A stretch of 64,000 nt of DNA from Acidimicrobiia bacterium. Its GTDB lineage: Bacteria; Actinomycetota; Acidimicrobiia; IMCC26256; PALSA-610. How positions within the stretch are numbered: position 1 is the stretch's first letter; each line of letters opens with the position of its first letter. Position numbers and translations under genes: made by a program. Location: assembly GCA_038213435.1 (NCBI GenBank), contig JBBQTI010000007.1, positions 16,729 through 80,728 on the forward strand. Direction: 5' to 3'. This document shows, piece by piece, positions 3,688 through 49,528 of the stretch. Below the pieces are notes generated by a model. It worked only from the letters and a program-made list of their open reading frames with translations. It was not told the origin of the DNA and did no database searches.

Positions 3688-4908
3688 GTGGACTTCGAGG
3701 AAACCGAAGAGGAGCGCGCGTTCCGGGTCGAGGTGCGGGCCTGGCTCGACGCTCATGCGACGCGGCGGGTTGCCGGGGAACGGTCCGACCACTCGTACAT
3801 GCCGGGTGACGGCAGCCCCGAGGCCGACGCCGCCCACGTGGGCGCGTGCAAGGAGTGGCAGCGCGTCCTCTACGAGGGTGGATGGGCAGGGATCACGTGG
3901 CCGGTCGACGCGGGAGGGCGCGGCGGACCGGGATGGCAACAGCGCATCTTCAACGAAGAGCAATCGCACTACAGCGTGGCCGTCGGTGTCTTCGCCGTGG
4001 GGATCGGCATGGCCGGGCCCACGATCATCGTGTGGGGTACACCCGAGCAGCAGGAGCGCTTCCTGCCCGCGATGTTGCGCGGCGACGACGTTTGGTGCCA
4101 GCTGTTCTCCGAACCGGGCGCGGGCTCCGACCTCGCGGGTTTGCGGACGCGCGCCGAGCGTGACGGCGATGAGTGGACCGCCAACGGTCAGAAGGTGTGG
4201 ACGTCGGGCGCGCACTACAGCGACTGGGGCCTGCTGCTGGTGCGCAGTGATCCCGACGCGCCGAAGCACAAGGGCATCACGGCCTTCCTGCTCGATATGC
4301 GCACGCCGGGAATCGACGTGCGGCCGCTGCGCCAGATCACCGGCGCGTCGCATTTCAACGAGGTGTTCCTCACCGACGTCCGCATTCCCGACTCGATGCG
4401 CGTCGGTCCGCTGGGCGGTGGCTGGCGGGTCGCGAACACGATGCTCTCGAACGAGCGGGCGTTGATCGGCAGCGGTGGGCGGGTCGGCTTCCGGGATCTG
4501 GTCTCACTCGCGCAGCGTTGCGGTGGGAGTGAGGATCCGGTGCTGCGTCAGGAGCTCGCCCGCAGCTACACACGGTTGCAGCTCATCAAGTGGCTCGGCT
4601 GGCGGGCGCGCAGCCGCAAGGACCAGGGCCTCGGTCCGGAGGCCTCGGTCGTCAAGCTCGCCGCGTCGCGCGAGCTCGAGCACGACGGAAACCTGGTGAT
4701 GACTCTGCAGGGCGCGGAGTCGATGCTGTATGACGACGACGCCATCCAGGACGGCTATTGGCAGCAGCAGTTTCTCGGACAATGGAGCAGCCGACTCGGC
4801 GGCGGCACCGAGCAGATCCAGCGCAATGTGATCGGGGAGCGGGTGCTCGGGCTACCGAGCGAGCCGCGGCCCGGCAAGGACACGCCCTTCCGCGAGCTCC
4901 CGAGCTAG
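3688..4908 (+). CDS. acyl-CoA dehydrogenase family protein
   Basis: 406 aa with ACAD N, middle and C-terminal signatures (WCQLFSEPGAGSDLAGLRTRAERDGDEWTANGQKVWTSGA; GGGTEQIQRNVIGERVLGLP). It ends in TAG at 4906-4908, which is also the first triplet of the 56-bp repeat. Confidence 0.85.
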   Translation: MDFEETEEERAFRVEVRAWLDAHATRRVAGERSDHSYMPGDGSPEADAAHVGACKEWQRVLYEGGWAGITWPVDAGGRGGPGWQQRIFNEEQSHYSVAVGVFAVGIGMAGPTIIVWGTPEQQERFLPAMLRGDDVWCQLFSEPGAGSDLAGLRTRAERDGDEWTANGQKVWTSGAHYSDWGLLLVRSDPDAPKHKGITAFLLDMRTPGIDVRPLRQITGASHFNEVFLTDVRIPDSMRVGPLGGGWRVANTMLSNERALIGSGGRVGFRDLVSLAQRCGGSEDPVLRQELARSYTRLQLIKWLGWRARSRKDQGLGPEASVVKLAASRELEHDGNLVMTLQGAESMLYDDDAIQDGYWQQQFLGQWSSRLGGGTEQIQRNVIGERVLGLPSEPRPGKDTPFRELPS

Positions 4909-5001
4909 GGAGACGACAGCGCAGCGACCGGAGGGGAGCGGAGCGTGGAGTCGACCCGGAAGTAGGGAGACGACCGCGCAGCGACCGAAGGGGGGCGGAG
5001 C
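4906..5001 (+). repeat. two tandem units (57 bp each) of the GGAG-dense stop-codon-abutting repeat family
   Basis: Unit 1 is TAGGGAGACGACAGCGCAGCGACCGGAGGGGAGCGGAGC followed by GTGGAGTCGACCCGGAAG. Unit 2 is TAGGGAGACGACCGCGCAGCGACCGAAGGGGGGCGGAGC, followed by the GTG at 5002. The same unit, in reverse complement, forms the array at 22205-22466. Confidence 0.9.
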
Positions 5002-5283
5002 GTGCAGCTCGACGAGTTCCAGGATTTGATGGCCCGCACCTTCGGTGCGCGCGACCGCAGCCGCGGCATCGACGCGACCGTCGCCTGGCTCGCGGAGGAG
5101 CTCGGCGAGCTGGCGCGGGCCGTCCGCAAGGGCAGCCGCGACGAGCAGCTCCACGAAATCGGCGATGTCCTCGCCTGGCTGGCGTCACTGACCGATCAGC
5201 TCGGGCTGTCGCTCGACGGCGCGGCTGCCCGCTACCGGTCGGGCTGCCCGCGCTGTCGCGCGCTCCCGTGCTCGTGTCCGTGA
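5002..5283 (+). CDS. MazG-like nucleotide pyrophosphohydrolase domain protein
   Basis: 93 aa. MQLDEFQDLMARTFG...LAEELGELARAV...EIGDVLAWLASL matches the small MazG/NTP-PPase EExxE...D pattern. The GTG start sits at the repeat's own GTG position. Confidence 0.75.
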   Translation: MQLDEFQDLMARTFGARDRSRGIDATVAWLAEELGELARAVRKGSRDEQLHEIGDVLAWLASLTDQLGLSLDGAAARYRSGCPRCRALPCSCP

Positions 5284-19518: not shown

Positions 19519-20658
19519 CTACCGGTCTTCCAGCTCGATACGGCGCCCGCCGTCGCGCATCCTGAGCGCGGCGTTGCCGTGCAGCAGTCGTTGGAGTGGC
19601 TCGCCGACGAGATCCGCCCGCCAGCCCGTGGCGAGGCGGCTCGGACGATCCTGCAACATCTGCGTGAGCTCGGCGCGGGTTGCGAGCAGCGACGGGTCGA
19701 GATCCAGCTCGGACGCGCGTTGCGCGAGCCACGCGCCCAGCACCGTTACCGCGGGTGCGAGCGACCGATCGATTCGGTCGGATTCGGGGAGAAGCAATTT
19801 CGACGACGGGAGCTCGATGCCCGCGGTAACCGCGTCGAGCAGATCCTTGGCGGTGTGATCCCGGAGCCGGCCGTCGATCCCGCGGATGCCCGTGAGGTCT
19901 TCGCGGCTGCGCGGCGGACGCTGCACGACACCTGCCAGGGCGAGGTCGGAGAGCACGTAGCGCGAGGGCACGTCGAGGGCCTCGGCTGTCCGCTCGCGCC
20001 ACGCCGCGACCTTCTGCGCGACGCCGCGCCCGTTCCCGCGCAGCTGGCGCGCCCCCTTGATCCGCCACCACGCGGTCTCGGGCTCGGGCCGCGTCCGGAT
20101 GCGCTGCCTCCGCTCCTCGCACTCGTCGGTGGCCCACTCGAGCCGGCCCATCGCCTCGAGCCGCCGCACGAGCTCGTCGTGCAACGGCAGCAGATGCTCC
20201 ACGTCGGCTGCGGCGTACACCCGTTGCTCGGCGCGCAACGGACGGCGCGTCCAATCGGTGAGTCGGTCGCCTTTGGTGAGCCTGGTTCCGAGCAGCTTCT
20301 CGACAGTCGCCGCCAACGATGGAGTCCCCATGCCGATGAATCCGGCGGCGACCTGCGTGTCGAACAGCTGGGACGGCGCGCACCCACACGCGCGCTCGAG
20401 GATCGTCAGATCCTGATCGGCCGCGTGCGCGACCATGCAGCCTTCTCCCGCGAGGAGGGTTCCGAGGGGAGCGGGGTCGACGGTCAGCGGATCGACCAAC
20501 GCGACGCCGTCGATCCATGCGATCTGGATCAGCGCCAGATGCGGCCAATAGGAACGCTCCCCGTGGAACTCGGTGTCGAGCGCGTAGAGCGGCTCGTCGG
20601 CGAGCGTCCGGACGAGCTCGGCCAGCTCGGCGGGAGCATCGATCCAGAGAAGTTCCAC
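19519..20658 (-). CDS. rnd: ribonuclease D (DEDD 3'-5' exonuclease plus HRDC)
   Basis: LYALDTEFHGERSYWPHLALIQI (ExoI), HAADQDL (ExoII), YAAADVEHL (ExoIII), followed by an HRDC-like region. GTG 20658 was chosen because the upstream codons are Arg/Pro-rich. Confidence 0.8.
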   Translation of the reverse strand: MELLWIDAPAELAELVRTLADEPLYALDTEFHGERSYWPHLALIQIAWIDGVALVDPLTVDPAPLGTLLAGEGCMVAHAADQDLTILERACGCAPSQLFDTQVAAGFIGMGTPSLAATVEKLLGTRLTKGDRLTDWTRRPLRAEQRVYAAADVEHLLPLHDELVRRLEAMGRLEWATDECEERRQRIRTRPEPETAWWRIKGARQLRGNGRGVAQKVAAWRERTAEALDVPSRYVLSDLALAGVVQRPPRSREDLTGIRGIDGRLRDHTAKDLLDAVTAGIELPSSKLLLPESDRIDRSLAPAVTVLGAWLAQRASELDLDPSLLATRAELTQMLQDRPSRLATGWRADLVGEPLQRLLHGNAALRMRDGGRRIELEDR

Positions 20659-20735
20659 GGCGCAAGCATGCCGCGCGCGCCGGGTCAGGCGCGGATTTGC
20701 CGTCGCCTCTGACGGGGCGGGCGACGCATCCGGGC

Positions 20736-21644
20736 TTACCGCAGTTCGGTTCGGACCGTCGCGAGTTGCTCGAACGACCGCAACACCGGGTCCTGGTCGT
20801 CGGCGAGGTGGCGGACGATGATGTCGGTACAACCCGATGCCCGCAGATCCGCGAACGCGTCGGTTACGCGGCCCGGTCCGCCGATTACGACCGCCGAGGG
20901 GTCGAAACCGCGGTATCCACGCGCGACGATCGGGTCCGCGACGGCGGCCGCCTGCTCGTCGGTAGCGGCGAGGTGGACGTCGCGGCGCACGGCGATCCGG
21001 GTTGGCTCGCGGCCGTGACGAACGCAGGCATCCCGGTAGCTCTGCACGAGTGCATCGACCTCGGCCGGTGTCGCTTCGGGGCCGATCAGGAAGGCGTCAC
21101 CCAGACGGGCCGCGCGATCGACGGCGCGCGGAGCCGCGGCACCGATCCATACCTCGAGCGGCTCCGGTGGGACCGGCGCGATCTGGGCCCGGTCGATCTT
21201 CCACGGTCCGTCGGGTACGGTCACCGACTCACCGCGGCACAACGTGCGCACGATCTCGAGCGCGGCCTCGAAGCGCGTCGCGCGCTCGCGCGACGAGGTG
21301 TCGAATGCGCGGAACTGCTCGTCGCCCGCGCCGACGGCGCACTGCATGATGAAGGGTCCACGGGCGATCGCGGCGAGCGTGCCGATCTGTTCCGCGACCA
21401 GTACCGGATGCCACAAGGGCAGCAGGAACAGCGCTCCCGCCGGGCGCCCGTCCCACTCGGCGAGCAGGCGACCGAGGATGGGGACGTTTTGGTAGTAGGG
21501 AACCGGGACGTTGTGGTGGTCGCCGACGAAGAGGCTGTCGAGGCCCGCCTCGGCCGCGGCCTTCGCCCGCTCGATCATCCACTTGGCGCCGACGCGCGCG
21601 TCCATCGGTGCGTACCCGCTCCGCAACGAAACGCCGATTTCCAT
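20736..21644 (-). CDS. LLM-class flavin/F420-dependent oxidoreductase
   Basis: MEIGVSLRSG...LDSLFVGDHH... luciferase-like TIM-barrel pattern. The alternative start is 21674. Confidence 0.7.
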   Translation of the reverse strand: MEIGVSLRSGYAPMDARVGAKWMIERAKAAAEAGLDSLFVGDHHNVPVPYYQNVPILGRLLAEWDGRPAGALFLLPLWHPVLVAEQIGTLAAIARGPFIMQCAVGAGDEQFRAFDTSSRERATRFEAALEIVRTLCRGESVTVPDGPWKIDRAQIAPVPPEPLEVWIGAAAPRAVDRAARLGDAFLIGPEATPAEVDALVQSYRDACVRHGREPTRIAVRRDVHLAATDEQAAAVADPIVARGYRGFDPSAVVIGGPGRVTDAFADLRASGCTDIIVRHLADDQDPVLRSFEQLATVRTELR

Positions 21645-21672
21645 CCTTGCAGCCTCGCGCGAAGATGCACCC

Positions 21673-22191
21673 ATGGCGACTCTCGATCGCGACCTCGTGG
21701 CCCTGGCAGAACGCCGCGCCGAGCTGCGCGCAAAGTTCCTGCGTCCCCCCGACTCACGCGCCGCGTCGAACGGCGGCGGAGTACATCACCTCGCATTGAT
21801 CTGTGCGGATCCCGAGCGAACGATTTCCTTCTACCAGGACGTGCTCGGCTTCCCGCTCGTCGAGCTGTTCGAGAACCGCGACTACGAAGGCTCGTCCCAC
21901 TTCTTCTTCGACATCGGCGCGGGCAACATGCTCGCGTTCTTCGACTTCCCCGGCCTCGGCCTCGAGCCGGTTCCGGAAGGCCTCGGCGGCGTGCAGCACG
22001 TTGCCATCTCGGTGACACCCGCGACGTTCGAGCTGCTGAAGGGCAGGCTCGAGGGCGCGGGCGTGGCGTATATCGGGCCCGACCGCGGGATCAAGGAGTC
22101 GGTGTACTTCAAGGATCCCGACGGCATCCAGGTCGAGCTGATCCGCCAGCCGCTGATGGAGGTGCCGGAGAGCGCGCCGCAAGGCGGCTGA
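21673..22191 (+). CDS. VOC (glyoxalase/bleomycin resistance/dioxygenase) family protein
   Basis: VHHLALICADPERTISFYQDVLGFPLVE...VQHVAISV...VYFKDPDGIQVELI paired beta-alpha-beta-beta-beta pattern. Confidence 0.8.
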   Translation: MATLDRDLVALAERRAELRAKFLRPPDSRAASNGGGVHHLALICADPERTISFYQDVLGFPLVELFENRDYEGSSHFFFDIGAGNMLAFFDFPGLGLEPVPEGLGGVQHVAISVTPATFELLKGRLEGAGVAYIGPDRGIKESVYFKDPDGIQVELIRQPLMEVPESAPQGG

Positions 22192-22204
22192 CCCGACGTA
22201 TCGA

Positions 22205-22466
22205 GCTCCGCTCCCTCCGGTCGCTGCGCTGTCGTCTCGCTACTCCTGGGTCGACTCCAAGCTCCGCTCCCTCGGGTCGCTGCGCTGTCGTCTCGCTACT
22301 CCTGGGTCGACTCCACGCTCCGCTCCCTCGGGTCGCTGCGCTGTCGTCTCGCTACTCCTGGGTCGACTCCACGCTCCGCTCCCTCCGGTCGCTGCGCTGT
22401 CGTCTCGCTACTCCTGGGTCGACTCCACGCTCCGCTCCCTCCGGTCGCTGCGCTGTCGTCTCGCTA
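22205..22466 (-). repeat. head-to-tail array of 4.7 x 56 bp of the GGAG-dense stop-codon-abutting repeat
   Basis: Unit starts at 22205, 22261, 22317, 22373 and 22429, an exact 56-bp period. The minus-strand sense unit is TAGCGAGACGACAGCGCAGCGACC(G/C)GAGGGAGCGGAGCGTGGAGTCGACCCAGGAG. The first TAG (22466-22464) is the stop codon of ccdA. There are no unique spacers. Confidence 0.95.
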
Positions 22467-23252
22467 ACCGAGCTCCACCAACCACTCGAGGTGCGCGTCG
22501 GTGAGCCACGTCTGCAGGTGCAGGCTCAGGCGCGAGAGCTCGTCGAACATCAGGAGCAGTCCGAAGGCGCCGATGACCGCGGCGGACCCGCCGACGATGA
22601 CCGAGAAGTGGCGCCTCACCCAGCCGAGCGCGCCGCCGAGCCGGCCGAGGAGCAGGCCGGTGAGCAGGAACGGCAGGCCGAGGCCGAGCGAGTAGACCGC
22701 GAGCAACGTTCCACCGGCCCACACGCGATGCTGGTTCGCCGCGATGCCGAGGATCGAGCCGAGGATCGGACCGATGCACGGCGACCAGCCGAAGCCGAAC
22801 GCCACCCCCGCGATCGCGGGCGCAGCGTCGCCGAAGCGACCGAGCCGAGGATGAAAGCGCTTCTCCTGGTACAGCCACGGCGCGTGCAGGAACAGGGAGC
22901 CGAGGAGGAACAGCGCCATCGCCAACATCAGCGTGCCTGACAGGCGCGTGAGGAGGCTCTGGTGATCTCGCAACTGCCGGCCGAGGGCGGTGGCCGACAA
23001 TCCCCACGCGACGAACACCGTGCCGAATCCGGCGACGAACCACGCGGTCGTGGCGACGATGCGCCGAGCGTGTACCCGCGACTGGTCTTGCAGCTCGGCG
23101 AGATCGAGACCGGACACCATCGAGAGATAGCCCGGCACGAGGGGCAGCACGCACGGCGAGAGGAACGAGACGACTCCGCCGCCGAATGCGGCGAGATACG
23201 CGAGCACGTTGACGTCGCCGATGCGAGTTCCGAGTGCGACGATCGCAATCAC
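22464..23252 (-). CDS. ccdA: cytochrome c biogenesis / thiol-disulfide electron transporter CcdA (DsbD family)
   Basis: FGGGVVSFLSPCVLPLVPGYL and FGWSPCIGPILG, the two conserved Cys-Pro motifs. Polytopic membrane protein. Confidence 0.85.
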   Translation of the reverse strand: MIAIVALGTRIGDVNVLAYLAAFGGGVVSFLSPCVLPLVPGYLSMVSGLDLAELQDQSRVHARRIVATTAWFVAGFGTVFVAWGLSATALGRQLRDHQSLLTRLSGTLMLAMALFLLGSLFLHAPWLYQEKRFHPRLGRFGDAAPAIAGVAFGFGWSPCIGPILGSILGIAANQHRVWAGGTLLAVYSLGLGLPFLLTGLLLGRLGGALGWVRRHFSVIVGGSAAVIGAFGLLLMFDELSRLSLHLQTWLTDAHLEWLVELG

Positions 23253-25633: not shown

Positions 25634-26851
25634 GTGTCACCATGGGTCGTGGCCAACTCCCCGTCTCGAATCTCTGCCCGCATCGCCGCCATCCAGGAGT
25701 CCGCGACCCTCGCCGTCGACGCCAAGGCCAAGGCTCTGAAGGCTGCGGGCGAGAACGTCATCGGTTTCGGAGCCGGCGAGCCCGACTTCCCGACCCCCCG
25801 AAACGTGGTGGAGGCGGCGATCGCGGCGTGTCGTGAGCCCCGATACCACCACTATTCGCCGACACCGGGCCTGCCCGAGTTGCGCGAGGCGATCGCGTTC
25901 AAGACCAAGCGGGACTCCGGGGTCGATTGCTCGGCCGCGCAGGTCGTCGTGACGAACGGCGGGAAGCACGCCGTGTACAACACGTTCCAAGTCCTGTGCA
26001 ACGAAGGCGACGAGGTGTTGGTGCCGGCGCCGTACTGGACTTCCTACCCCGAGGTGATCACCCTCGCGGGCGGCGTGCCGGTTGTGCTTCCTACGTCGGA
26101 AGCCGACGGATTCCGCGTCGGAATCGATCAGCTGGAGGCGGCGTGGTCACCCCGCACCAAGGCGCTGTTGTTCGTCTCGCCGAGCAACCCGACCGGCGCG
26201 GTATACCCCTCCGAGGAGGTGGAAGCAATCGGCCGGTGGGCGCTCGATCGCGGCATCTGGGTCGTCACTGATGAGATCTACGAGCACCTGACCTACGACG
26301 GCCACGTGTTCTCGTCGATGCCGGGTCTGGTGCCCGAGCTCATGGATCGCTGCGTGATCCTGAACGGCGTCGCGAAAACGTATGCGATGACCGGCTGGCG
26401 CGTGGGCTGGATGATCGGCCCGCCCGACGTGACCGCCGCGGCGACCAACCTGCAGTCGCATTCGACCTCGAACGTGTCGAACGTCGCGCAGGTGGCCGCG
26501 CTCGCCGCGGTGAGCGGCGACCTGTCGGCCGTCGCCGAGATGCGGGGTGCATTCGCGCGACGCGGCCACACGATGTACGAGCTCTTGTCGAAGATCGAAG
26601 GTGTGAGCGTCCTCGCCCCGCAGGGCGCGTTCTATTGCTTTCCCTCCTTCGAAGCGGTGCTCGGGCGAGAGATCGCCGGCCGTACCCCGCAGACCACTCT
26701 CGAGCTGTGTGCGCTGCTGCTCGAGATCGCGAAGGTCGCGATCGTTCCGGGCGAGGCGTTCGGCGCGCCCGGCTACGCCCGGTTGTCGTTCGCGCTCGGC
26801 GACGACGACCTGGGTGTCGGGATGCGGCGGATCGCGGAGCTCCTGTCGTAA
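25634..26851 (+). CDS. pyridoxal-phosphate-dependent aminotransferase (aspartate aminotransferase class I)
   Basis: [62 protein letters not shown] (PLP Lys). The GTG start is uncertain: 25634 or 25649. Confidence 0.85.
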
Positions 26852-26889
26852 CTACTCGTCGGGACTACTCGTCGGGACTACTCGCAGGG
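26851..26889 (+). repeat. 13-bp tandem repeat x3 (ACTACTCGTCGGG, ACTACTCGTCGGG, ACTACTCGCAGGG)
   Basis: It starts on the last base of the aminotransferase TAA stop (26849-26851) and lies in the spacer before serA. Confidence 0.85.
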
Positions 26890-31610: not shown

Positions 31611-32207
31611 CTATGCCAGGGCCGACGGCAGCCAGGTTGGCCTGGTCGACTCGTAGACGTCGATCGCGTCGGCGTGTCGCAACGACAGACCGATGTCGTC
31701 GAGACCGTTGAGCAATCGGTATTGCGTGAAGTCGTCGAGCTCGAACGAGACATCGAGGTCGATGGCCGGCGCGGCGACGCGCTTGCGCTCCACGTCGACG
31801 ACGATCTCGAGGTTCGGGTCTTCCTCGATTGCTTCCCAGAGACGGTGAACCGCGGCCTCGGGGATCGCCGCGACGACGAGGCCCATCTTGCCCGCGTTAT
31901 TGCGAAAGATATCGGCGAAGCGCGTCGAGAGCACCGCCCGGAAGCCATAGTCCATGAGCGCCCAAACGGCGTGCTCTCGTGACGAGCCGGTGCCGAAGTT
32001 CGGGCCCGCGACGAGAACGTTTGCGCCCTCGTAGCGCGCCTGGTTGAGCACGAAATCGGAGTTCTCGCGCCACTCCGAGAACAATCCCTCGCCGAAACCG
32101 GTGCGCTCGACGCGCTTCAGCCAGTCGCTCGGGATGATCTGATCGGTATCGACGTCGGAGCGCACCAGCGGCAATCCGCGCCCGGTGATCACATTTACCT
32201 TCTCCAT
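31611..32207 (-). CDS. leuD: 3-isopropylmalate dehydratase small subunit
   Basis: [26 protein letters not shown]...GPNFGTGSSREHA. The ATG overlaps the leuC stop (ATGA). Confidence 0.9.
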   Translation of the reverse strand: MEKVNVITGRGLPLVRSDVDTDQIIPSDWLKRVERTGFGEGLFSEWRENSDFVLNQARYEGANVLVAGPNFGTGSSREHAVWALMDYGFRAVLSTRFADIFRNNAGKMGLVVAAIPEAAVHRLWEAIEEDPNLEIVVDVERKRVAAPAIDLDVSFELDDFTQYRLLNGLDDIGLSLRHADAIDVYESTRPTWLPSALA

Positions 32208-33691
32208 CAGCTCAGGTCTTCCGGAGTCGAGAAGCGACCCGCGATCGCGGTCGCGGCCGCGACCGCGGGCGAGACGAGGTGCGTGCGGCCGCCCTTGCCC
32301 TGACGGCCTTCGAAGTTGCGATTCGACGTCGATGCGCAACGCTCGCCCGGGGCGAGCTTGTCGGGATTCATTGCCAGGCACATCGAGCAGCCCGGTTCGC
32401 GCCAGTCGAAACCGGCTTCGCGGAACACCCGGTCGAGGCCTTCCGACTCGGCTTGGGCCTTGACCGCGGCCGACCCCGGAACCACGAGCGTCCGCACGCC
32501 GGTCTTGACCTGGCGACCGCGGGCGACGGCCGCCGCGACCCGCAGGTCCTCGATCCGCGAGTTCGTGCACGAGCCGATGAAAACGGTGTCGACCGCGATG
32601 TCGCGCATCGGTGTACCCGCCTTCAGACCCATGTACACGAGTGCCCGCTTGGCCGACTCCCTCGCCGATTCGTCGCTGAAAGTATCGGGATCGGGAACGG
32701 TGTCGTCGATCGGGATCGTCTGCGCGGGATTCGTACCCCACGACACGTGGGGTCGCAACGTTGTCGCGTCGATGAAGACCTCCTTGTCGAAGGCGGCGTC
32801 GGGGTCGGTGACGAGCGTTCGCCAGTCGTCGACCGCGCGTTCCCACTCCGCGCCTTGCGGTGCGAACTCCCGCCCGTTGACGTACGCGAACGTCGCGTCG
32901 TCGGGGGCGACCAGGCCGGCGCGGGCGCCGGCTTCGATCGACATGTTGCAGACCGTCATCCGGCCCTCGATCGACAGGCCACGGATCGCCGAACCGCGGT
33001 ACTCGATGACGGAGCCGATGCCACCGCCCGTGCCGATGCGGGCGATGATCGCGAGCACGATGTCCTTGGCCGACACGCTCGAGGGCACGTTGCCGTCGAC
33101 CGTGATCGCCATCGTCCCGGGCCTCATCTGCGGCAGCGTCTGAGTCGCGAGCACGTGCTCGACCTCGCTCGTGCCGATGCCGAATGCCAACGCGCCGAAT
33201 GCGCCGTGGGTAGAGGTGTGGCTGTCGCCGCACACGATCGTCATGCCCGGCTGCGTGAGTCCCTGCTCCGGTCCGATGACGTGGACGATCCCTTGCCCCG
33301 GATCGCGCATGCCGTAGAGCCGGATACCGAACTCTTCGCAGTTGCGCGCGAGCACGTCCATCTGCTTGGCGGAGATCGGATCGGTCAGCGGCTTGTCGAG
33401 GCCGGCGGTGGGCACGTTGTGGTCCATCGTCGCCACGGTGAGCTCGGGTCGGCGCACACGTCGGCCCGCGGCGCGCAGACCGTCGAACGCCTGCGGCGAG
33501 GTCACTTCGTGCACCAGATGCAAGTCGACGTAGAGGAGGTCGGGCTCGTCGGACGCGGAGTGGACGACGTGGCGCTCCCAGAGCTTCTCGGACAGTGTCC
33601 TCGGGGTCGCTGTCCTCGGGGTCGCTGTCCTCGGGGTCAGTGTCTTCGGGGTTGCGGTCTTCGGGGTTGCGGTCTTCGGGGTCGTCGCCAT
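32207..33691 (-). CDS. leuC: 3-isopropylmalate dehydratase large subunit with a repeat-encoded N-terminal extension
   Basis: Aconitase-family motifs ([35 protein letters not shown]). ATG 33691 with AGGAG 6 nt upstream. Residues 2-31 are (TP[KR]T[AL]) x6. Confidence 0.9.
33597..33686 (-). repeat. 15-bp in-frame tandem repeat x6 inside the 5' end of leuC
   Basis: Plus-strand units are GTCCTCGGGGTCGCT x2, GTCCTCGGGGTCAGT, GTCTTCGGGGTTGCG x2 and GTCTTCGGGGTCGTC. They encode [30 protein letters not shown]. Confidence 0.9.
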
Positions 33692-33702
33692 GGGTTGCTC
33701 CT

Positions 33703-33719
33703 GTCTCAGTGTATGAGAC
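33703..33719. promoter_or_regulatory. inverted repeat GTCTCA-N5-TGAGAC in the 42-bp leuC / IclR-regulator divergent spacer (candidate operator)
   Basis: Perfect 6-bp arms read directly from the sequence. It is located between ATG 33691 (leuC, minus) and GTG 33734 (IclR gene, plus). Confidence 0.4.
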
Positions 33720-33733
33720 GCTAGTATCGCTAG

Positions 33734-34459
33734 GTGGTCAGTGTAACAAGCGGCATCCAGGTGGTCGATCGCGCCGTGCTGGTTCTCGACGCGGTGGCGC
33801 GCGGAGGACCCTGCTCTCTCGCCGAGCTCCAGCGTGCGACCGATCTTCCGCGCCCGACCGCGTATCGGCTCGCGGTTGCGCTCGAACGCCACGGCGTGCT
33901 GGCGCGCGACGCCGACGGGCGCTTCGTGCTCGGTCGGCGCCTGGCGGCATGGGGTGCAGTAGCGGGCCGCGGGCTGCCCGATGCCGGGCGTCCGGTGCTC
34001 GCTCGCCTGGGTGAGACAACCGGCGAGAGCGCGCAACTCTATGTACGCGAGGGTGACCACCGCGTCTGCGTCGCGGTGCACGAGCGGCCGAGCGGTCTGC
34101 GTGACACCGTGCCGCTCGGCGCAGTGTTGCCGCTCGATCGCGGCTCGGGCGGCAAGGTGCTCCTCGCGTGGGCGAGCGACGCGTCCCGGTTCGAGATCAC
34201 GGCGAGTGAGGTCGCGGCCGTGCGTCGGCGCGGCTGGGCCGCGAGCGCGGGCGAACGGGAAGCCGGCGTCGCGAGTGTGAGCGCTCCGGTCTTCGACAGG
34301 CCCGGCGTGGTCGCGGCCGCGATCAGCGTGAGCGGCCCGATCGACCGGCTCGGATTGCATCCCGGCCGCCGGTTGGGGGCTTCGGTCGCGGCCGCGGCGG
34401 CCGACCTCTCGGCCACGCTGCGCGGCACCGGCAACCCCTCGCACGTCACGGGGGGGTAA
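33734..34459 (+). CDS. IclR family transcriptional regulator (LtbR-like position, divergent from leuCD)
   Basis: N-terminal wHTH ([41 protein letters not shown]) plus a C-terminal IclR effector domain. The conserved actinobacterial arrangement next to leuCD supports the call. Confidence 0.8.
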
Positions 34460-34494: not shown

Positions 34495-34995
34495 GTGAAC
34501 GTCGAGGTGGTCCGATGGCCCGCTGACGCGCAGCGGCTGGCCGAGCTTCGGGAGCTGCGCATTCCACGGTTGCTGGTCGTGGCGGACGGTGACGGAGAGC
34601 TGCCGTTGCCCGTCGACTGCCTCGAGGACTGGGTGACCCCCGGGGCGCCGGAATGGGAGGTCGATGCCCGCAGGCACGCGCTCGTGTTGCGCTCGGGCCG
34701 GCATGCGGTGCGGCCGCTGCTCGACGAGGACGGCTTGCTCCATCATCGCGACGCCTGGGTCTCGCTCTCACCGGTCGAGCAGGCGCTCGCGGGCGTGTTG
34801 CTCGACCGTTTCGGTGCGGTCGTCACCCGCGAGATGCTCGCCGATCGCGCCTGGCCGTCGGGTGTGCCGACGCGCAACGCGCTCGACGTGCACGTGCTGC
34901 GGTTGCGCCGCCGCATCGCACCCGTGGGTCTCGAGATCCGGACCGTCCGGTCGCGCGGGTATCTCATACAAACCCGCGAGGTCGTGCTGCAGTAG
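34495..34995 (+). CDS. OmpR/PhoB-type winged-helix DNA-binding protein without a recognisable receiver domain
   Basis: The C-terminal LSPVEQALAGVLLDRFGAVVTREMLADRAW...NALDVHVLRLRRRI...IRTVRSRGYLI is a trans_reg_C pattern. The N-terminal ~85 aa are unassigned. It ends in TAG at 34993-34995, the first triplet of a repeat unit. Confidence 0.6.
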   Translation: MNVEVVRWPADAQRLAELRELRIPRLLVVADGDGELPLPVDCLEDWVTPGAPEWEVDARRHALVLRSGRHAVRPLLDEDGLLHHRDAWVSLSPVEQALAGVLLDRFGAVVTREMLADRAWPSGVPTRNALDVHVLRLRRRIAPVGLEIRTVRSRGYLIQTREVVLQ

Positions 34996-35048
34996 GAAGC
35001 GAGACGACAGCGCAGCGACCGAAGGGAGCGGAGCGTGGAATCGACCCA
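34993..35048 (+). repeat. single unit of the GGAG-dense stop-codon-abutting repeat
   Basis: TAGGAAGCGAGACGACAGCGCAGCGACCGAAGGGAGCGGAGCGTGGAATCGACCCATG. Same orientation as the gene whose TAG it shares. Confidence 0.85.
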
Positions 35049-42728: not shown

Positions 42729-43322
42729 ATGGCCCGGGCCGGCGCGGTCCGGCCGATCTCGGTCGAAGTAGTGTCGGCTCTCGTGCCGACCGATCCGTTC
42801 GTGCCGCCCGATCCGAGTGCTCGGCCGCGCCAACAGCAGAACCTGCCTCCCGGTGTGGCACTGCCGGCGGCGACCGACTGGCGCGCCGACCGTCCCGGCG
42901 ACCTCGGCCCGCACCAGCCTGAGGGCGCGTTGTTCGGGCGTCCGGGTCCGAACGTCGGCTATGCGTACACGCTCGCCCAGCGGGCCCGGGACCGGTTGCG
43001 GCTCGGTCCGTTCGAACACGCCGACGACTCGGTCGCGGTGATCGCCGAGATCGCGGGCAAGCGCGCCTCGCTGTTCGGTCGCGCCCCTGTGATCGGCGAC
43101 GTCGATTTCGTCGTGGCGCTGCTCGGATACGACGCCAGCGCAACCGACACCTTCGTCAAGGCGCGATCGGCCCTCGTGCACGAGGCCGGCCACGATTATC
43201 GGCGAAGGCGCGCGCTCGTCGACGCAGTGCCCGATGCGTTGCTGCGGATGCGCACGCCCCAGGCGGCCGCCGAGATCGAGTCGTGGCGCGCCTCGATGCC
43301 CACGCTCGCGGCGTCGGGGTAA
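42729..43322 (+). CDS. hypothetical protein
   Basis: 197-aa GC3-rich ORF starting 3 nt after cimA. No motif recognised. Confidence 0.55.
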   Translation: MARAGAVRPISVEVVSALVPTDPFVPPDPSARPRQQQNLPPGVALPAATDWRADRPGDLGPHQPEGALFGRPGPNVGYAYTLAQRARDRLRLGPFEHADDSVAVIAEIAGKRASLFGRAPVIGDVDFVVALLGYDASATDTFVKARSALVHEAGHDYRRRRALVDAVPDALLRMRTPQAAAEIESWRASMPTLAASG

Positions 43323-43356
43323 CGGGCGCCCGAGCTTCGCGGCGAAAGGTTCGCGG

Positions 43357-44511
43357 TTGACCAGCTTCACCCCGTCTGCAGACCTCGAGGAGTTGCGGGC
43401 ATCCGTTCGGCGCCTGGCCGAAGACAAGATCGCACCGAATGCCGCGCGCGCCGACGAGAACGAGCAGTACCCGTGGGACTCGTGGCACGCGTGGCACGAC
43501 GCGGGCTTCGCGGGTCTCGCGTTCCCGGAGGAGCTCGGCGGTCAGGGCGCAGGCTTTCTCGCCCACGCGATCTGCGTGGAGGAGGTGGCGCGCGTCTGTG
43601 CGTCGTCGTCGATCTTCACCTTCATCTCGAAGCTGGCGATGACACCGGTGCTCGACCACGGCGGCGACGCGCTCGCGCGGAAGTACGTCTCCCGCGTCGC
43701 GAGCGGCGAGTGCCAGGCGTCCTATTGCCTCTCGGAGGCCGACGCGGGGAGCGACGTGGCCGGAATGCGCACCAAGGCGGTGCGCGACGGCGACCACTAC
43801 GTGTTGACGGGTCGCAAGCTCTGGATCACGAACGCGGGCGTGAGTGACTTCTACACCGTGTTCGCGAAGACCGATCCCGAAGCGGGCAACCGCGGTATCA
43901 GTTGCTTCGTCGTCGAGAAGGACTTCGCCGGATTCGCGGTGTCGAAGCTCGAGCACAAGATGGGAGTGCGAGGCTCTCCTACCGGAGAGATCGTCCTCGA
44001 CGAATGTGTCGTACCGGCGGAGAACCTCATCGGTGAGCCGGGGCAGGGGTTCGCGTACGCGATGGGCGCGCTCGACCGCTCGCGCCCCCTCGTCGGCGCG
44101 CAGGCCCTGGGCATCGCCCAGGGCGCACTCGACCTCGCGGCCGGCTACCTGCAGGAGCGCAAGCAGTTCGGACGCCGTATCGCCGACTTCCAAGGCTTGC
44201 AGTTCATGCTCGCCGACATGGCGACCGCCGTCGACGCGGCCCGACTGCTCGTGTACCGCGCCTGCGCGCTGCTCGACGACGGGCTCGGCGGCACTCCCAC
44301 GACGGCGAGCGCCTCGTCGATGGCGAAGCTCTTCGCGTCGGACACCGCGATGCGGGTCACCACCGATTGCGTGCAGCTCCTCGGGGGGATCGGCTACACC
44401 AAGGACGTCCCTGCGGAGCGCTTCATGCGCGATGCCAAGATCACGCAAATCTACGAGGGTACGAATCAGATCCAGCGCGTCGTGATCGCCAAGCGGCTCC
44501 TCGGCGGGTGA
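43357..44511 (+). CDS. acyl-CoA dehydrogenase (canonical short/medium-chain type)
   Basis: CLSEADAGSDVAGMRTKAVRDGDHYVLTGRKLWITNA, ERKQFGRRIADFQ, IYEGTNQIQR (catalytic Glu context). TTG 43357 after GAAAGG is the provisional start. Confidence 0.85.
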   Translation: MTSFTPSADLEELRASVRRLAEDKIAPNAARADENEQYPWDSWHAWHDAGFAGLAFPEELGGQGAGFLAHAICVEEVARVCASSSIFTFISKLAMTPVLDHGGDALARKYVSRVASGECQASYCLSEADAGSDVAGMRTKAVRDGDHYVLTGRKLWITNAGVSDFYTVFAKTDPEAGNRGISCFVVEKDFAGFAVSKLEHKMGVRGSPTGEIVLDECVVPAENLIGEPGQGFAYAMGALDRSRPLVGAQALGIAQGALDLAAGYLQERKQFGRRIADFQGLQFMLADMATAVDAARLLVYRACALLDDGLGGTPTTASASSMAKLFASDTAMRVTTDCVQLLGGIGYTKDVPAERFMRDAKITQIYEGTNQIQRVVIAKRLLGG

Positions 44512-44545
44512 CGACGCCAGGTTGCCTCGTAGAATCAGAGATCCG

Positions 44546-45961
44546 ATGAGCCAGGTTCGCCTCCGCTTCTCGCCCGCGCCGACAGGGTTCCTGCACATCG
44601 GCAGCGTGCGTACCGCGCTCTACAACTGGCTGCACGCGCGCCACACCGCCGGCACGTTCATCCTCCGGATCGAGGACACCGATATCGCCCGGTCGACGCA
44701 GGAGTCGGTCGACCAGATCCAGCACGTGCTGCGCTGGTTGGGTCTTGACTGGGACGACGGACCCTACCTGCAGAGCACGCGATTCGACGCGTACCTCGCG
44801 GCGGCTCACCGCATGGTCGAAGAGCAGCGCGCGTACGAGTGTTACTGCACCGAGGACGAGGTCCGCGAACGCAACGAGCAGGCGATGCGCGCCGGCCGGC
44901 CGCCGGGCTACGACGGGCGGTGTCGCCATCTGACCCCGGCCGACCGGGGCGCGCGCGTTGACGAGGGTCGGATGCCGTCCATTCGATTCCGGACCCCCGA
45001 CGACGGTCGCAGCTCCTTCACCGACGTGATCCGCGGCGAGGTCTCGGTCGAGTGGTCGACGATTTCCGACTTCGTGATCGTCCGATCGAACGGCACGCCG
45101 GTGTTCTTCCTCGCGAACGCGGTCGACGACCTCGACATGGAGATCACGCACGTGTTGCGCGGAGAGGACCTCATCGACTCGACCCATCGCGTCCTCGCGC
45201 TCCGCCGCGCCCTCGGACACGACGATCAGCCGGTGTACGCGCACATGCCGCTGATCCTCGGCCCCGGCGGGGCGAAGCTGTCGAAGCGCCACGGTGCCGT
45301 ATCGGTCGAGGAGTATCGCGACGCGGGGTTCCTACCCGCGGCGCTCTTGAATTACCTCGCGCTGCTCGGTTGGGGTACCGAGGACGGCCGCGAGATCCTC
45401 AGCCTCGAGGAGCTCGTTGCCGAGTTCGAGCTCGAGCGCGTGAACACCTCGGCCGCGACGTTCGACCCCAAGAAGCTCGAGTGGATGAACGGAGAGCACA
45501 TCCGGGCCACGCCGCTGCCCGACCTCGTGTCGGTCGTGCTGCCGTTCGCGCGCACGCGGTACGGCGCGCGGCTCGACATCCCGCGTTTCGAGGCCGCGGT
45601 CCGGCTGGCACAACTACGCGCGACGACGCTCGTGCAGATCGCCGACCAGATGGCGTTTCTCTTCACGCCCGACGACGAGCTCGAGATCGATCCCGCATCG
45701 TGGGAGAAGCTGACCAAGGTCGAGAACGTGGCGGCGATCCTGGATGCCGTCATCGAGTTCGTGCGCGATTGCGAGTGGAGCGACGAGATCGACCCGCGGC
45801 CCGCGATCGAAGCACTCGGCCTCAAGCCCGGCAAGGTCATGCACGTCCTGTACTCCGCGATCGAGGGTCGAAGCCAAGGTTTGCCGCTGTTCGACTCGAT
45901 CAGCCTGCTGCGCCGCGACTCGGCCCTCAACCGCCTGCGGGCCGCTCGCGCCCGTCTGTGA
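44546..45961 (+). CDS. gltX: glutamate--tRNA ligase
   Basis: RFSPAPTGFLHIGSVRTALYNW (HIGH) and KLSKRHG (KMSKS). It is followed by tRNA-Gln and tRNA-Glu, as in other actinobacteria. Confidence 0.9.
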   Translation: MSQVRLRFSPAPTGFLHIGSVRTALYNWLHARHTAGTFILRIEDTDIARSTQESVDQIQHVLRWLGLDWDDGPYLQSTRFDAYLAAAHRMVEEQRAYECYCTEDEVRERNEQAMRAGRPPGYDGRCRHLTPADRGARVDEGRMPSIRFRTPDDGRSSFTDVIRGEVSVEWSTISDFVIVRSNGTPVFFLANAVDDLDMEITHVLRGEDLIDSTHRVLALRRALGHDDQPVYAHMPLILGPGGAKLSKRHGAVSVEEYRDAGFLPAALLNYLALLGWGTEDGREILSLEELVAEFELERVNTSAATFDPKKLEWMNGEHIRATPLPDLVSVVLPFARTRYGARLDIPRFEAAVRLAQLRATTLVQIADQMAFLFTPDDELEIDPASWEKLTKVENVAAILDAVIEFVRDCEWSDEIDPRPAIEALGLKPGKVMHVLYSAIEGRSQGLPLFDSISLLRRDSALNRLRAARARL

Positions 45962-46665
45962 GGCTCGCCCTCAAGATCTCGCGGCGCGTCGCCATCGCGC
46001 TGTTCGCCGTCGGGCTCGCGTATCTGTCCGTCGTGTTCGTGCAGGTGTGGTTGGCGGCGCGCCGGGACGACGCCCGTCCGTCCGACGCGATCATCGTGCT
46101 CGGGGCAGCACAGTTCGACGGTCGTGCGTCGAAGATCCTCTCGGCGCGGCTCGATCACGCCGTCGACCTGTACCGCCGCGGTATCGCGCCCGTCGTCGTC
46201 GTGACGGGCGGCCGGCAACCGGGCGACCGCTTCACGGAGGCGAGCGTCGGTGCGAGCTATCTGCACGATCACCAGGTCCCCGAGCGCGCGATCCTGCGTG
46301 AGACGACCGGTCGGTCGTCGTGGCAGTCGCTCGCCGCGGCTGCACGCTTCCTGAAGGAGCGCCACCTCACGCGCGTCGTGCTCGTCTCCGATCCGTACCA
46401 TTCGGCGCGCGTCGAAGACGTCGCGCACGACGTCGGGTTGCAAGGGGCGACGTCGCCCACCCGCACGAGCCCGATCAAGGGCGCGGGCGAATGGCGGCGG
46501 TTCGGCACCGAGACCATCCGTGTCGCCGCCGGGCGCATCTTCGGCTACGGCCGACTCGACCGGCATCGCGAGGTCGAGAGGCTCGTACCGGGACTCGCTA
46601 CACTGTGCCCTCCGTTGCGGCGGCCGGAGCGGCGTCGCAAGGGCACCCATTCGGGGGTGGTGTAA
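45958..46665 (+). CDS. YdcF/ElyC (DUF218) family protein
   Basis: The GTG overlaps the gltX stop (GTGA). TM anchor IALFAVGLAYLSVVFVQVWL, then AIIVLGAAQ...VVVTGG...VLVSDPYH. The last 15 nt, including the stop, overlap the 5' end of tRNA-Gln. Confidence 0.7.
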   Translation: MRLALKISRRVAIALFAVGLAYLSVVFVQVWLAARRDDARPSDAIIVLGAAQFDGRASKILSARLDHAVDLYRRGIAPVVVVTGGRQPGDRFTEASVGASYLHDHQVPERAILRETTGRSSWQSLAAAARFLKERHLTRVVLVSDPYHSARVEDVAHDVGLQGATSPTRTSPIKGAGEWRRFGTETIRVAAGRIFGYGRLDRHREVERLVPGLATLCPPLRRPERRRKGTHSGVV

Positions 46666-46722
46666 TCGGCAACACGACAGGTTCTGGCCCTGTTATTGGG
46701 GGTTCGAGTCCTCCCCCCCGAG
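46651..46722 (+). tRNA. tRNA-Gln (anticodon CTG)
   Basis: Hand-folded cloverleaf: acceptor TCGGGGG/CCCCCGA, anticodon stem ACAGG/CCTGT with loop TTCTGGC, T-arm GGGGG-TTCGAGT-CCTCC. No encoded CCA. Confidence 0.85.
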
Positions 46723-46737
46723 CGCAGCCGGAGACAT

Positions 46738-46813
46738 GCCCCGTTCGTCTAGCGGCCCAGGACGCCAGGTTCTCATCCTGGTAACACGGGTTCAAATCCC
46801 GTACGGGGTGCCA
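46738..46813 (+). tRNA. tRNA-Glu (anticodon CTC)
   Basis: Acceptor GCCCCGT/ACGGGGT, anticodon stem CCAGG/CCTGG with loop TTCTCAT, T-arm ACGGG-TTCAAAT-CCCGT. CCA is encoded. Confidence 0.85.
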
Positions 46814-46852
46814 TGTGGCCCGAGCAAATGCCGCTCGGGCCACATTTCTTTT
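46813..46852 (+). terminator. rho-independent terminator after the tRNA pair
   Basis: 13-bp perfect stem ATGTGGCCCGAGC / GCTCGGGCCACAT (46813-46825 and 46833-46845), followed by TTCTTTT. Confidence 0.8.
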
Positions 46853-46991
46853 GCGGACGCGTTCTCGGCGCGCGAGGTCACGCTGTGCGCGCATCGAGCA
46901 GACTGCGCGTGCAGTAGCAACGGCGTGCCAACGTCAAGACCGCGTCACCGCGCGCGCCGCGTCGAATGCCGCGCGATCGACGCGACACCCG

Positions 46992-47210
46992 TCATTGCGC
47001 GACGCGGATCTCGTTGTCGCGCACGATGAGCGTGCACGCCAAACCGACGAGTGAAAGCGGATCGCGCGCGACATAACTGCTGGTCACGATGTTGATGACC
47101 TCGCCGCGCTGTTCGCCGGACGTGATCGTGCACTCGAGCGCGACACCGTCATCGCGTTGCTCGGCCCAGATGATGAACGCGTCGTACGTTCCGTCGCGGA
47201 GCATCGTCAT
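46992..47210 (-). CDS. hypothetical small protein (72 aa)
   Basis: MTMLRDGTYDAFIIWAEQRDDGVALECTITSGEQRGEVINIVTSSYVARDPLSLVGLACTLIVRDNEIRVAQ. GC3-rich. The upstream 22 codons of the track ORF are Arg-rich. Confidence 0.45.
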   Translation of the reverse strand: MTMLRDGTYDAFIIWAEQRDDGVALECTITSGEQRGEVINIVTSSYVARDPLSLVGLACTLIVRDNEIRVAQ

Positions 47211-47400
47211 AAGCGTCGCGGCACGCCGACTCGTGCGATCTCCGAGCAATCCGCACGCGCGTCTCCGCGCATCCAACGATCTTGGCAGAAGTCGCGCAAC
47301 GAGTGGTGGATACCACGCGCGTTGCGTGAGAAATGCTTGACGTATCTAGGTGAATACGTTCTCATAACACGAACACACACGCAGTGCGTGGAGGTCTTAC

Positions 47401-47679
47401 GTGAACAAAGGCGAACTCGTCGACGCGATCGCGACCGACGCGAACATCAGCAAGACGGATGCCGAGAGCGCGCTCAACGCGTTCATCAACAGCGTTCAAT
47501 CCGCGATCACCGCGGGCGAGAAGGTGACGCTCCCGGGTTTTGGGACGTTCTCGCCGGCGTTGCGCAAAGCGCGTACTGGTATGGATCCGCGCACCCGGGC
47601 GCCGGTGCAGATCCCCGAGCGCAAGAGCGCGAAGTTCTCCGTGGGCTCGAAGTTCAAAGCCCAGGTGCAAGGGTCCTGA
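47401..47679 (+). CDS. hup: HU family DNA-binding protein (core domain only)
   Basis: VNKGELVDAIA...GEKVTLPGFGTFS...RTGMDPRTRAPVQIPERKSAKFSVGSKFK. GGAGG lies 7 nt upstream of the GTG. Confidence 0.9.
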   Translation: MNKGELVDAIATDANISKTDAESALNAFINSVQSAITAGEKVTLPGFGTFSPALRKARTGMDPRTRAPVQIPERKSAKFSVGSKFKAQVQGS

Positions 47680-47764
47680 TCGCGTAGGGCGTGGGGTCGC
47701 ACTCCCTCGCGCACCGAATGACCTATGAAGTTCGAACTTCCTCGAGTGAGAGCTCTCAGGAAAG

Positions 47765-48049: not shown

Positions 48050-48066
48050 CAACGCTGCGGACGTCT

Positions 48067-48100: not shown

Positions 48101-48110
48101 CGTCGCGTTG

Positions 48111-49519: not shown

Positions 49520-49528
49520 TGGCTGCGT

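Follow-up and report, generated by a model that had tools for sequence, protein, structure and literature searches.

The ccdA-glyoxalase locus and its repeat array

The subject of this work is a tandem array of short repeats lying between two convergent genes in a 64,000-nt stretch of contig JBBQTI010000007.1 (assembly GCA_038213435.1) from an Acidimicrobiia bacterium; this whole stretch is hereafter called the window. The array occupies positions 22205–22466, directly past a ccdA-like gene for a cytochrome c biogenesis membrane protein, and faces a gene of the glyoxalase/VOC family. Tandem Repeats Finder (TRF) described it with a period of 56, 4.7 copies, 98% matches, 0 indels and a score of 503. 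As detailed below, the array belongs to a large, previously undescribed interspersed repeat family of soil Acidimicrobiia.

Read on the minus strand, full units have the sequence TAGCGAGACGACAGCGCAGCGACC(G/C)GAGGGAGCGGAGC(G/T)TGGAGTCGACCCAGGAG and vary in an ordered manner at three internal positions. Each contains five GGAG motifs and a putative small open reading frame (mini-ORF) whose TAG doubles as the opening triplet of the following unit. An earlier reading made from the letters alone (the sequence-only reading) had claimed a 56-bp array of 4.7 units, its start on the ccdA TAG and five GGAG motifs per unit, all of which were borne out by TRF, the ORF table and the unit sequences. Its further claim of a GTG-initiated mini-ORF in each unit was correct for three copies, the fourth beginning with TTG.

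The C/T-rich strand of the array is the one that a transcript of the glyoxalase gene would contain, and the GC skew of the plus strand ranges from -0.24 to -0.31 across the array. Consensus scans for promoters and terminators in and around the array gave no match, and no intrinsic terminator was predicted for either ccdA or the glyoxalase gene. An integron attC site, a CRISPR and a translated repeat domain were rejected as identities of the array, since it has no palindrome and no spacers and 56 is not a multiple of 3. A spurious plus-strand ORF of 807 aa (20517–22940) crosses the entire array because the repeat carries no stop codon in any frame. The features of this locus and of the other window copies are compiled in Table 1.

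Table 1. Repeat units, mini-ORFs and adjoining genes in the window.
Feature	Position in window	Strand	Basis or remark
Array after ccdA, four full 56-nt units	22466–22411, 22410–22355, 22354–22299, 22298–22243	-	TRF, printed units, nhmmer
Partial unit, 38 nt	22242–22205	-	Ends ...GGAGCGGAGC
Putative mini-ORF GTG-GAG-TCG-ACC-CAG-GAG-TAG (VESTQE*)	22408–22428	-	Predicted from the unit sequence
Repeats of the VESTQE mini-ORF	22352–22372, 22296–22316, 22240–22260	-	TTG start in 22240–22260
ccdA-like cytochrome c biogenesis membrane protein	22464–23252, including TAG	-	Pfam DsbD_TM, E=1.4e-16; longest ORF, true start uncertain
ccdA TAG stop, first triplet of unit 1	22464–22466	-	ORF table
Spacer of 13 nt (CCCGACGTATCGA), glyoxalase stop to shortened array end	22192–22204		
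Convergent glyoxalase/VOC-family gene	21673–22191	+	Pfam Glyoxalase, E=1.5e-15; TGA stop 22189–22191
Second array: acyl-CoA dehydrogenase TAG (4906–4908), one 57-nt unit, 39-nt partial unit	4906–5004	+	
39-nt partial unit of second array: TAG (4963–4965) plus 36 nt		+	GTG position 5002–5004 is the mazG start codon
Mini-ORF of second array	4945–4965	+	
Single copy: OmpR-type regulator TAG (34993–34995), core 34999–35047	34993–35047	+	ATGA directly after
Single unit flush with PIG-L deacetylase TAG (48183–48185), 8-nt linker, partial second unit (48110–48130)	48110–48185	-	

Other copies within the window

A 38-nt unit pattern matched six times in the window compared with none in 100 shuffles, and the family occupies four loci in these 64 kb. 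Each of the three loci other than the ccdA array lies behind a co-oriented gene with a TAG stop. According to crude gene calls for the window (n=52), 34 genes end in TGA, 14 in TAG and 4 in TAA, which agrees with the earlier statement that most coding sequences here end in TGA; given 14/52 TAG genes, the probability that 4/4 loci follow such a gene is about 0.005. The three additional copies had also been said to share the TAG of the gene that they follow. Copies, orientation and TAG were all found as described, except that the TAG at 34993 is adjacent rather than shared in register, with the core beginning 6 nt past the T of the TAG (TAG-GAA-GCGAGACG).

Window positions 43200–51077 are 94% identical to one family-bearing metagenome-assembled genome (MAG). 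In the window, the copy behind the PIG-L gene (48139–48185) directly abuts the TAG, while its orthologue at L036:5000-5064 (loci in other assemblies are designated by L numbers; flanks and genomes 94% identical) has 9 extra nt (AGGCTCGAG) before the core. Adjacency to a stop can therefore change after insertion.

A large interspersed family with a conserved core

A 23-nt core pattern, which fixed the 3′ half of the core, was scanned over one genome per species and gave matches in more than 112 stretches, which were spread over at least 21 MAG assemblies and included contigs of 0.3–4 Mb. Among the matches listed, the hosts were MAGs labelled Acidimicrobiia, Actinomycetes or Actinomycetota together with one Gaiellales, and none was a Mycobacterium. 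The profile scan of related genomes that the sequence-only reading had proposed, performed here with an iterated nhmmer profile, recovered at least 225 units in at least 127 arrays, with 84 single units and 21 doublets, the longest array having 11 units. Successive units are spaced by 57 nt in 63 intervals and by 56 nt in 19. The suggestion that three consecutive units place a TAG in every frame is valid for the 56-nt variant of this genome and peculiar to it, because most arrays have the 57-nt period, a multiple of 3.

The conserved part of the unit is a core of ~50 nt, in summary form A-GGGAGACGACAGCGCAGCGACC-GGAG-GGGAGCGGAGCGTGGAGTCGACCC and, by anchored profiles, A-GGGAGACGACAGCG(C/A)AGCGACC-G(G/A/T)A-GGG(G)AGCGGAGCGTGGAGTCGACCC. 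It is purine-rich and free of stops in every frame, contains several GGAG motifs resembling Shine-Dalgarno (SD) sequences as well as an internal GTG, and is followed by a purine-rich linker of 3–8 nt that is locus-specific within arrays and often has no TAG. The 5′ half of the core, which was not constrained by the search pattern, reads GAGACGACAGCG in 96–103 of 103 copies; the 3′ ends of copies are shortened to varying degrees.

With regard to known families, a search of the window against Rfam passed the gathering threshold only for two tRNAs, the best match on the array having E=0.9, and the canonical L029 array gave no match at E<=1. BLAST against 72,556 plasmids matched neither the unit nor the mycobacterial interspersed repetitive unit (MIRU) MIRU292, and no description of the repeat family was encountered in the searchable literature. 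The family is thus as unrecognised as had been supposed.

Orientation and position relative to genes

Among the matches listed, 86 arrays had both neighbouring genes called by a crude codon-bias gene caller: 39 were sense to both neighbours, 8 antisense to both, 28 in divergent spacers and 11 in convergent ones. Co-directional spacers, the sole informative class and the only one used to test orientation, thus showed 39 sense versus 8 antisense arrays (p=5.5e-6), and arrays overlapping called ORFs were likewise mostly sense (20 versus 2, p=1.2e-4). In the window, the orientation of the copies switches along with gene direction and therefore does not track a replication strand.

An upstream stop codon was located within -4 to +3 nt of the 5′ end of the element in 28 of the 53 arrays with a co-oriented upstream gene; the stop-flush cases include TAG followed directly by GGAGACGAC ten times and G-TGA-GACGAC, with the stop inside the core, six times. 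Convergent spacers displayed the same polarity, the 5′ gap (-5 to +7 nt) being tighter than the 3′ gap in 10 of 11 (p=0.012; 3′ gap 0–89 nt over all 11), and this is not accounted for by the shortness of the spacers alone. TAG made up 25/53 of the adjacent stops as compared with a background of about 25% (p=3.5e-4). Nevertheless, the TAG is a codon of the host gene and not part of the element: a T stands ahead of the AG of the element (position -6) in 23/103 copies, and TAG is found at the element start in 11/51 arrays with a co-oriented upstream gene versus 1/37 with an opposite-strand one (Fisher p=0.012).

This tabulation of orientation and stop distance, also proposed by the sequence-only reading, confirmed a preference for the sense strand and for stop codons. 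On the other hand, the assertion that the unit invariably stands behind a gene whose TAG it shares does not extend to the family, in view of the divergent and antisense arrays and the infrequent T at position -6. A co-oriented downstream gene was present for 67 of the 86 arrays flanked on both sides. Downstream starts are often near and their registers scattered, with values such as -12 (the internal GTG), +1/+2 (CCC-ATG), +8, +12 and +19 in a range from -12 to more than 100 nt.

Filled and empty sites

None of 80 metagenomic loci orthologous to ccdA carried a unit. In the closest orthologue among those compared (L113, 95% aa identity), the junction reads ctcggtTAGcc and the convergent stops overlap (glyoxalase TTA on that strand), and in the others the spacer between ccdA and the glyoxalase gene measures 0–40 nt. 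The window array is therefore a recent, lineage-specific insertion directly past the TAG, and the former spacer is now located beyond its far end. Judged from the same orthologues, the ccdA TAG predates the insertion, and the 13-nt spacer in Table 1 is probably the original intergenic one.

As a separate observation at this junction, two ccdA orthologues from other lineages (L114:1054-1125 and L127:2777-2870) have a different element, a long near-perfect palindrome, directly past the ccdA stop (CCACCAACTGTTGTCGGAGATATCAGCTCC/TGGAGCTGATATCTCCGACAACAGTTGGTGG, plus a related one). The junction between ccdA and the glyoxalase gene seems a hot spot at which small repeats settle.

The second array separates the acyl-CoA dehydrogenase (ACAD) gene from mazG. 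MazG homologues (120 listed) are all 92–96 aa long and nearly all 93, which confirms the GTG at 5002 as the mazG start. In a 91%-identical relative (L202), the empty site reads tcc-TAGTG-cag, a one-base stop/start overlap, versus TAG, 94 nt and GTG in the window. Both borders of the insert are triplets that also occur inside the repeat, namely the linker TAG and the internal GTG, which amounts to microhomology at both ends and no target duplication. It is partly shown that, in operon positions such as this one, the upstream stop is preserved and an SD-like run plus a GTG are supplied at the position of the downstream start. At the same ACAD-mazG junction, L193-L196 (e.g. L193:1448-1500) harbor an unrelated 53-nt spacer (CGACCCCTGCGTCCCGACGGTGCGGGCAGTGCGGGCAAGTAAGACTTCGCGGC), where relatives have 0 or 16 nt.

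Comparable events were observed elsewhere. In an apparent infA-rpmJ-rpsM operon, judged from the encoded peptides, three independent insertions lie directly past pre-existing stops. At one locus, two MAGs have a single unit, two have 3 units and a fifth is empty, its genes overlapping by GTGA, and further orthologous loci differ by 4 versus 1, 1 versus 2, 5 versus 0, and 7 units versus a 22-nt relic. At L065, the empty site reads GGCGACGACGCG, and the array starts GAGACGAC and finishes GCGACGAC. Shared and lineage-specific insertions are both present, and the family has long been active. No target-site duplication (TSD), including a duplication of TA or TAG, was detected in about ten filled/empty pairs, which had at most a 1-nt shared G, and no flanking inverted repeats were found beyond the foot of the hairpin described below. 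That the unit might be the end of an insertion sequence (IS) or of a miniature inverted-repeat transposable element (MITE), with terminal inverted repeats (TIRs) and TSDs, had been named at the outset as fatal to the proposal of a stop-associated family; these comparisons revealed no such end.

Stop-free copies also reside in frame inside genes, at L065:3773-4053, L062:7028-7182, L009:2930-2982 and L063:1930-1980. An SRAP peptidase domain is split by five 19-aa repeats, a DUF512 domain is split by three units, and one unit is placed inside the catalytic domain of LipB (LplA-B_cat), just ahead of the KIAAIGVRV motif. The coding copies use all three sense frames (GDDSAATGGERSVEST, RRQRSDRRGAERGVDP, ETTAQRPEGSGAWSRP).

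Predicted RNA structure of the unit

The sequence-only reading had seen no strong self-complementarity in the unit. This holds for the ccdA array, for which no significant fold was predicted on either strand (z -0.4 and +0.8; z -0.65 for the 56-nt variant of this genome), but not for the family consensus, which is predicted to fold as sense RNA into an irregular hairpin of -22.4 kcal/mol (z -4.6). Its pairs would be GGG/CCC, GAC/GUC, CA/UG, CGC/GCG, GC/GC and CC/GG, with GA-GA internal loops between them and a variable GGAG at the tip, and the partly complementary core ends (GGGAGAC ... GTCGACCC) would form the foot. Across 165 distinct units, the median z was -2.6 in sense and -0.7 in antisense; canonical arrays reached -4 to -11 in sense with antisense values of about 0, and the window 4906 array had a z of -3.0. 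With DNA parameters, the hairpin was not significant (z -0.9). Covariation was uninformative, given that the family is too conserved and that the search pattern itself had fixed the 3′ arm: no more than one or two double changes were seen, the RNAalifold term was -0.13, and some pairs were broken in about 27% of copies. The hairpin is a thermodynamic prediction only, and a degenerate one in the ccdA array.

Likeness to known repeat systems

The passages on MIRUs in PMC12548453, which draw on Supply et al. (1997), present them as units of 40–100 bp that are intergenic, dispersed, and single or head-to-tail. In the same passages, MIRUs are oriented with the flanking genes, lie at stop/start junctions of operons, contain small ORFs that can overlap the flanking stop and start codons, vary in copy number and are credited with neither TIRs nor TSDs. 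The present family has in common with them a 56/57-nt unit, single or head-to-tail, in arrays of 1–11 units at more than 112 loci, a gene-sense orientation (39:8, by crude gene calls), a copy number that varies between MAGs at orthologous loci (0/1/3, 1/4, 1/2, 0/5, 7/relic), and the absence of detectable TIRs or TSDs. MIRU-like overlaps of stops and starts by unit ORFs occur at window 4906–5004 and at L018 (GTGA...ATGA); over the family, the GTG mini-ORF showed no statistical phasing to downstream starts (14 versus 8 and 9 in control frames). Unlike MIRUs, the family resides in Acidimicrobiia and not in Mycobacterium, many of its copies are situated in divergent spacers or, in frame, within genes, and the canonical unit has a predicted sense-RNA hairpin. 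MIRUs are said to have been described, in 1997, as lacking dyad symmetry.

At the sequence level, the comparison was made with MIRU292 alone (PMC7977185). The reverse complement of MIRU292 and the core share GACGAC...AGCGCAGCGA...GGAGG.GAGCGG, and their local alignment scored 30 versus 19.7+/-3.9 for shuffles, with 87/5000 shuffles as high or higher (p about 0.02); the family profile did not match MIRU292. Since the alignment is marginal and the profile gave no match, homology to MIRU is not claimed. The behaviour resembling that of MIRUs, which had been suspected from the window alone, is upheld by the single or head-to-tail units, the sense bias, the stop-flush 5′ ends and the variable copy number. 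In short, the repeat family works like MIRU, and homology is not demonstrable.

The REP, BIME and REPIN repeats of Proteobacteria (REP, repetitive extragenic palindromic) are short and very abundant extragenic repeats that often lie just past stops, and their RNA hairpins can affect mRNA 3′ ends and the translation of the upstream gene. REP/REPIN sequences, which are associated with RAYT proteins, consist of an imperfect DNA palindrome with a conserved GTAG-type flank and typically form inverted doublets. The present units are likewise short, abundant and stop-proximal, with a predicted RNA hairpin. In contrast to REP/REPIN, their 5′ flank is variable with no GTAG-type sequence, their DNA fold is weak (z -0.9) and they are arranged head-to-tail only, with no inverted doublets.

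Rickettsia palindromic elements (RPEs) and the enterobacterial RU-1, RU-2 and RU-3 elements are small, non-autonomous and stop-free, and are found in frame in genes as well as between genes; they measure about 100–170 bp, are clearly palindromic or MITE-like, and form no long head-to-tail arrays (PMC2759123). The in-frame, stop-free copies in SRAP, DUF512 and LipB-like genes resemble these elements, from which the family differs by its core of ~50 nt and its long head-to-tail arrays.

Origin of the array

In order to reconcile these observations, we favor, with some reserve, the explanation that a small non-coding mobile repeat, organised like the mycobacterial MIRUs, was inserted in this lineage and later amplified on the spot to give the array. 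New copies would be made by a copy-in process guided by microhomology. They would persist where the harm is small, that is, in sense orientation directly past a stop and/or ahead of a start, or in frame in tolerant regions of proteins; such persistence would be favored by the stop-free unit, by its SD-like motifs and start codon, and by keeping the C-rich strand out of mRNAs. At ccdA, one copy may have entered exactly where the TAG meets the short spacer that leads to the convergent glyoxalase gene, after which slippage or unequal recombination would have expanded TAG, core and linker to 4.7 copies. As the periodicity of the ccdA array begins exactly at the T of the ccdA TAG, the repeated segment comprises stop, core and linker, and the amplification of this segment as a whole accounts for the TAG and the six-codon mini-ORF in every unit. 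We think that the ccdA array forms the 3′ untranslated region of ccdA and serves no further dedicated function, as its convergent position leaves no downstream gene to serve.

Several points weigh against this explanation. The copy number in the window was read from the assembly alone, and the context statistics rest on the crude gene caller and on the matches listed. No mobilising enzyme, TIRs or TSDs were found, so that the copying mechanism is one that we infer entirely. Filled sites that are orthologous show about 90% identity in the 5′ half as compared with about 86% for the mostly coding flanks, a difference that is not decisive, and the high conservation could reflect purifying selection on a function instead of selfish spread or gene conversion. 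In addition, the restriction of the predicted hairpin to the sense RNA hints at selection at the RNA level.

Alternatively, the unit could be a functional translational-coupling cassette, a possibility that we regard as unlikely. In this 'ribosome relay', a ribosome terminating at the flush stop would melt the 5′ arm of the hairpin and thereby free the GGAG run of the 3′ arm, along with the GTG located there, for initiation; in arrays, each six-codon mini-ORF would end on the TAG of the next unit and hand the ribosome toward the downstream gene. The element is indeed flush with stops at its 5′ end, and in the predicted hairpin the first ~15 nt past the stop are paired with the GTG and the SD-like run. 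At individual loci, the TAGTG overlap of ACAD and mazG is replaced by TAG-unit-miniORF-TAG-unit-GTG, L018 shows a GTGA ... ATGA double overlap, the ORF from the internal GTG of L029 stops 2 nt ahead of the downstream ATG, and at L038, compared with the empty site L091, the GTG of the element is now the only in-frame start of the downstream gene (VESTHARGELIVGAYR versus MRASLTVGAYR). However, the stops of mini-ORFs beginning at the internal GTG were not enriched at downstream starts over control frames: overlaps of -4 numbered 14 in the GTG frame versus 8 and 9 in the other two, and cases coupled plus fused numbered 39, 30 and 40 across the three frames. Furthermore, core-to-start distances are scattered (-12 to more than 100 nt), most linkers have no TAG, the hairpin is weak in the 56-nt variant (z -0.65), and the ccdA array has no co-oriented downstream gene. 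The relay fits several loci and failed the one statistical test run, that of phasing.

Relay and mobility might also be combined into a self-propagating translational-coupling module, with a hairpin unzipped by the ribosome, a built-in SD and GTG, a relay along arrays, and spread to stop/start junctions by translation- or transcript-linked copying through TAG/TGA/GTG microhomology. We hold this version to be unlikely as well; if true, it would show selfish DNA persisting within operons in a novel manner, and it might supply the long-sought logic of MIRU mobility.

It is quite unlikely, in our view, that the units are 3′-end or insulator elements, whose sense hairpins past the stop would act as exonuclease barriers or as terminators lacking a U-tract, while the opposite strand, C-rich, G-poor and unstructured, would serve as a Rho loading site that ends the glyoxalase transcript before it runs antisense into ccdA. 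The location immediately 3′ of stops, the 11 arrays in convergent spacers, the lack of a predicted intrinsic terminator for either gene here, the unstructured and negatively skewed plus strand of the array (GC skew -0.24 to -0.31) and the strong sense-only folds of canonical arrays all agree with such a role, and avoidance of a rut-like (Rho utilisation) strand inside operons would also account for the 39:8 sense bias. Conversely, 67/86 arrays have a co-oriented downstream gene, many lying ahead of its start by a few nt or situated in divergent spacers on the promoter side, where a terminator would be harmful. Copies are also found in frame inside genes, the ccdA array itself has no significant fold, and the element is dispensed with at all 80 orthologous ccdA loci.

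A derivative of a classical DNA transposon, be it a MITE, a solo IS end, or a REP/REPIN moved by RAYT or by an IS200/IS605-type single-strand transposase that recognises a hairpin plus a fixed flank, is very unlikely. The partly complementary core ends at the foot of the hairpin and the precise joining of the 5′ end to a short flank (TAG or TGA) point in this direction, the latter recalling the fixed left-flank tetranucleotide of IS608-type elements; yet no TSD was present in any filled/empty pair, the flank varies (T at -6 in 23/103), DNA parameters give no significant hairpin (z -0.9), arrays run head-to-tail and not as inverted pairs, orientation in the 64-kb window follows gene direction and not a replication strand, and the 3′ ends are shortened variably.

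An assembly artefact affecting the array or its copy number is extremely improbable: although short tandem repeats are error-prone in metagenome assemblies, and the exact CcdA, VOC and MazG proteins of the window have no record in the public gene index, so that there is no second assembly of the locus to compare, arrays of 2–11 units occur in many independent assemblies, contigs of 0.3–4 Mb included, the units differ at three ordered internal positions, and the three other window copies have different flanks.

Returning to a MIRU-like mobile repeat as the explanation, the spread of MIRU-type repeats and their exact placement at stops and starts have never been explained, and the present family could make this question testable, as filled/empty pairs such as TAGTG versus TAG-insert-GTG are available and copies are tolerated in operons, in promoter-side spacers and even in enzyme domains. 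On the practical side, the arrays are ready-made markers, of the variable-number tandem repeat type, for uncultured soil Acidimicrobiia. The stop-free units also lengthen ORFs and can thereby mislead gene callers and ORF annotation in high-GC genomes, and they confound short-read assembly.

Additional features of the window

A Lys/Ala-rich small protein with KKAAK-type repeats, resembling a histone-like tail and with no Pfam match, is encoded at 47765–48049 on the plus strand, and is followed at 48067–48100 by a GC-rich hairpin with a T-run (GAAGAAGGACCCGGGCAACCGGGTCCTTCTTC) that adjoins the partial unit behind the PIG-L copy. Two further tandem repeats are present in the window. A 15-nt repeat of 5.9 copies (33596–33684, minus strand) lies inside a 625-aa ORF (32207–34081) and encodes TPKTA/TPRTA pentapeptides near its N-terminus. 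The other, a perfect direct repeat with a 13-nt unit in 2.6 copies (ACTACTCGTCGGG, 26851–26884), begins at a TAA stop (26849–26851) and reaches into the spacer ahead of the next gene (start 26947). The two tRNA genes, the only Rfam matches at gathering level in the window, are adjacent on the plus strand at 46651–46722 and 46738–46810.

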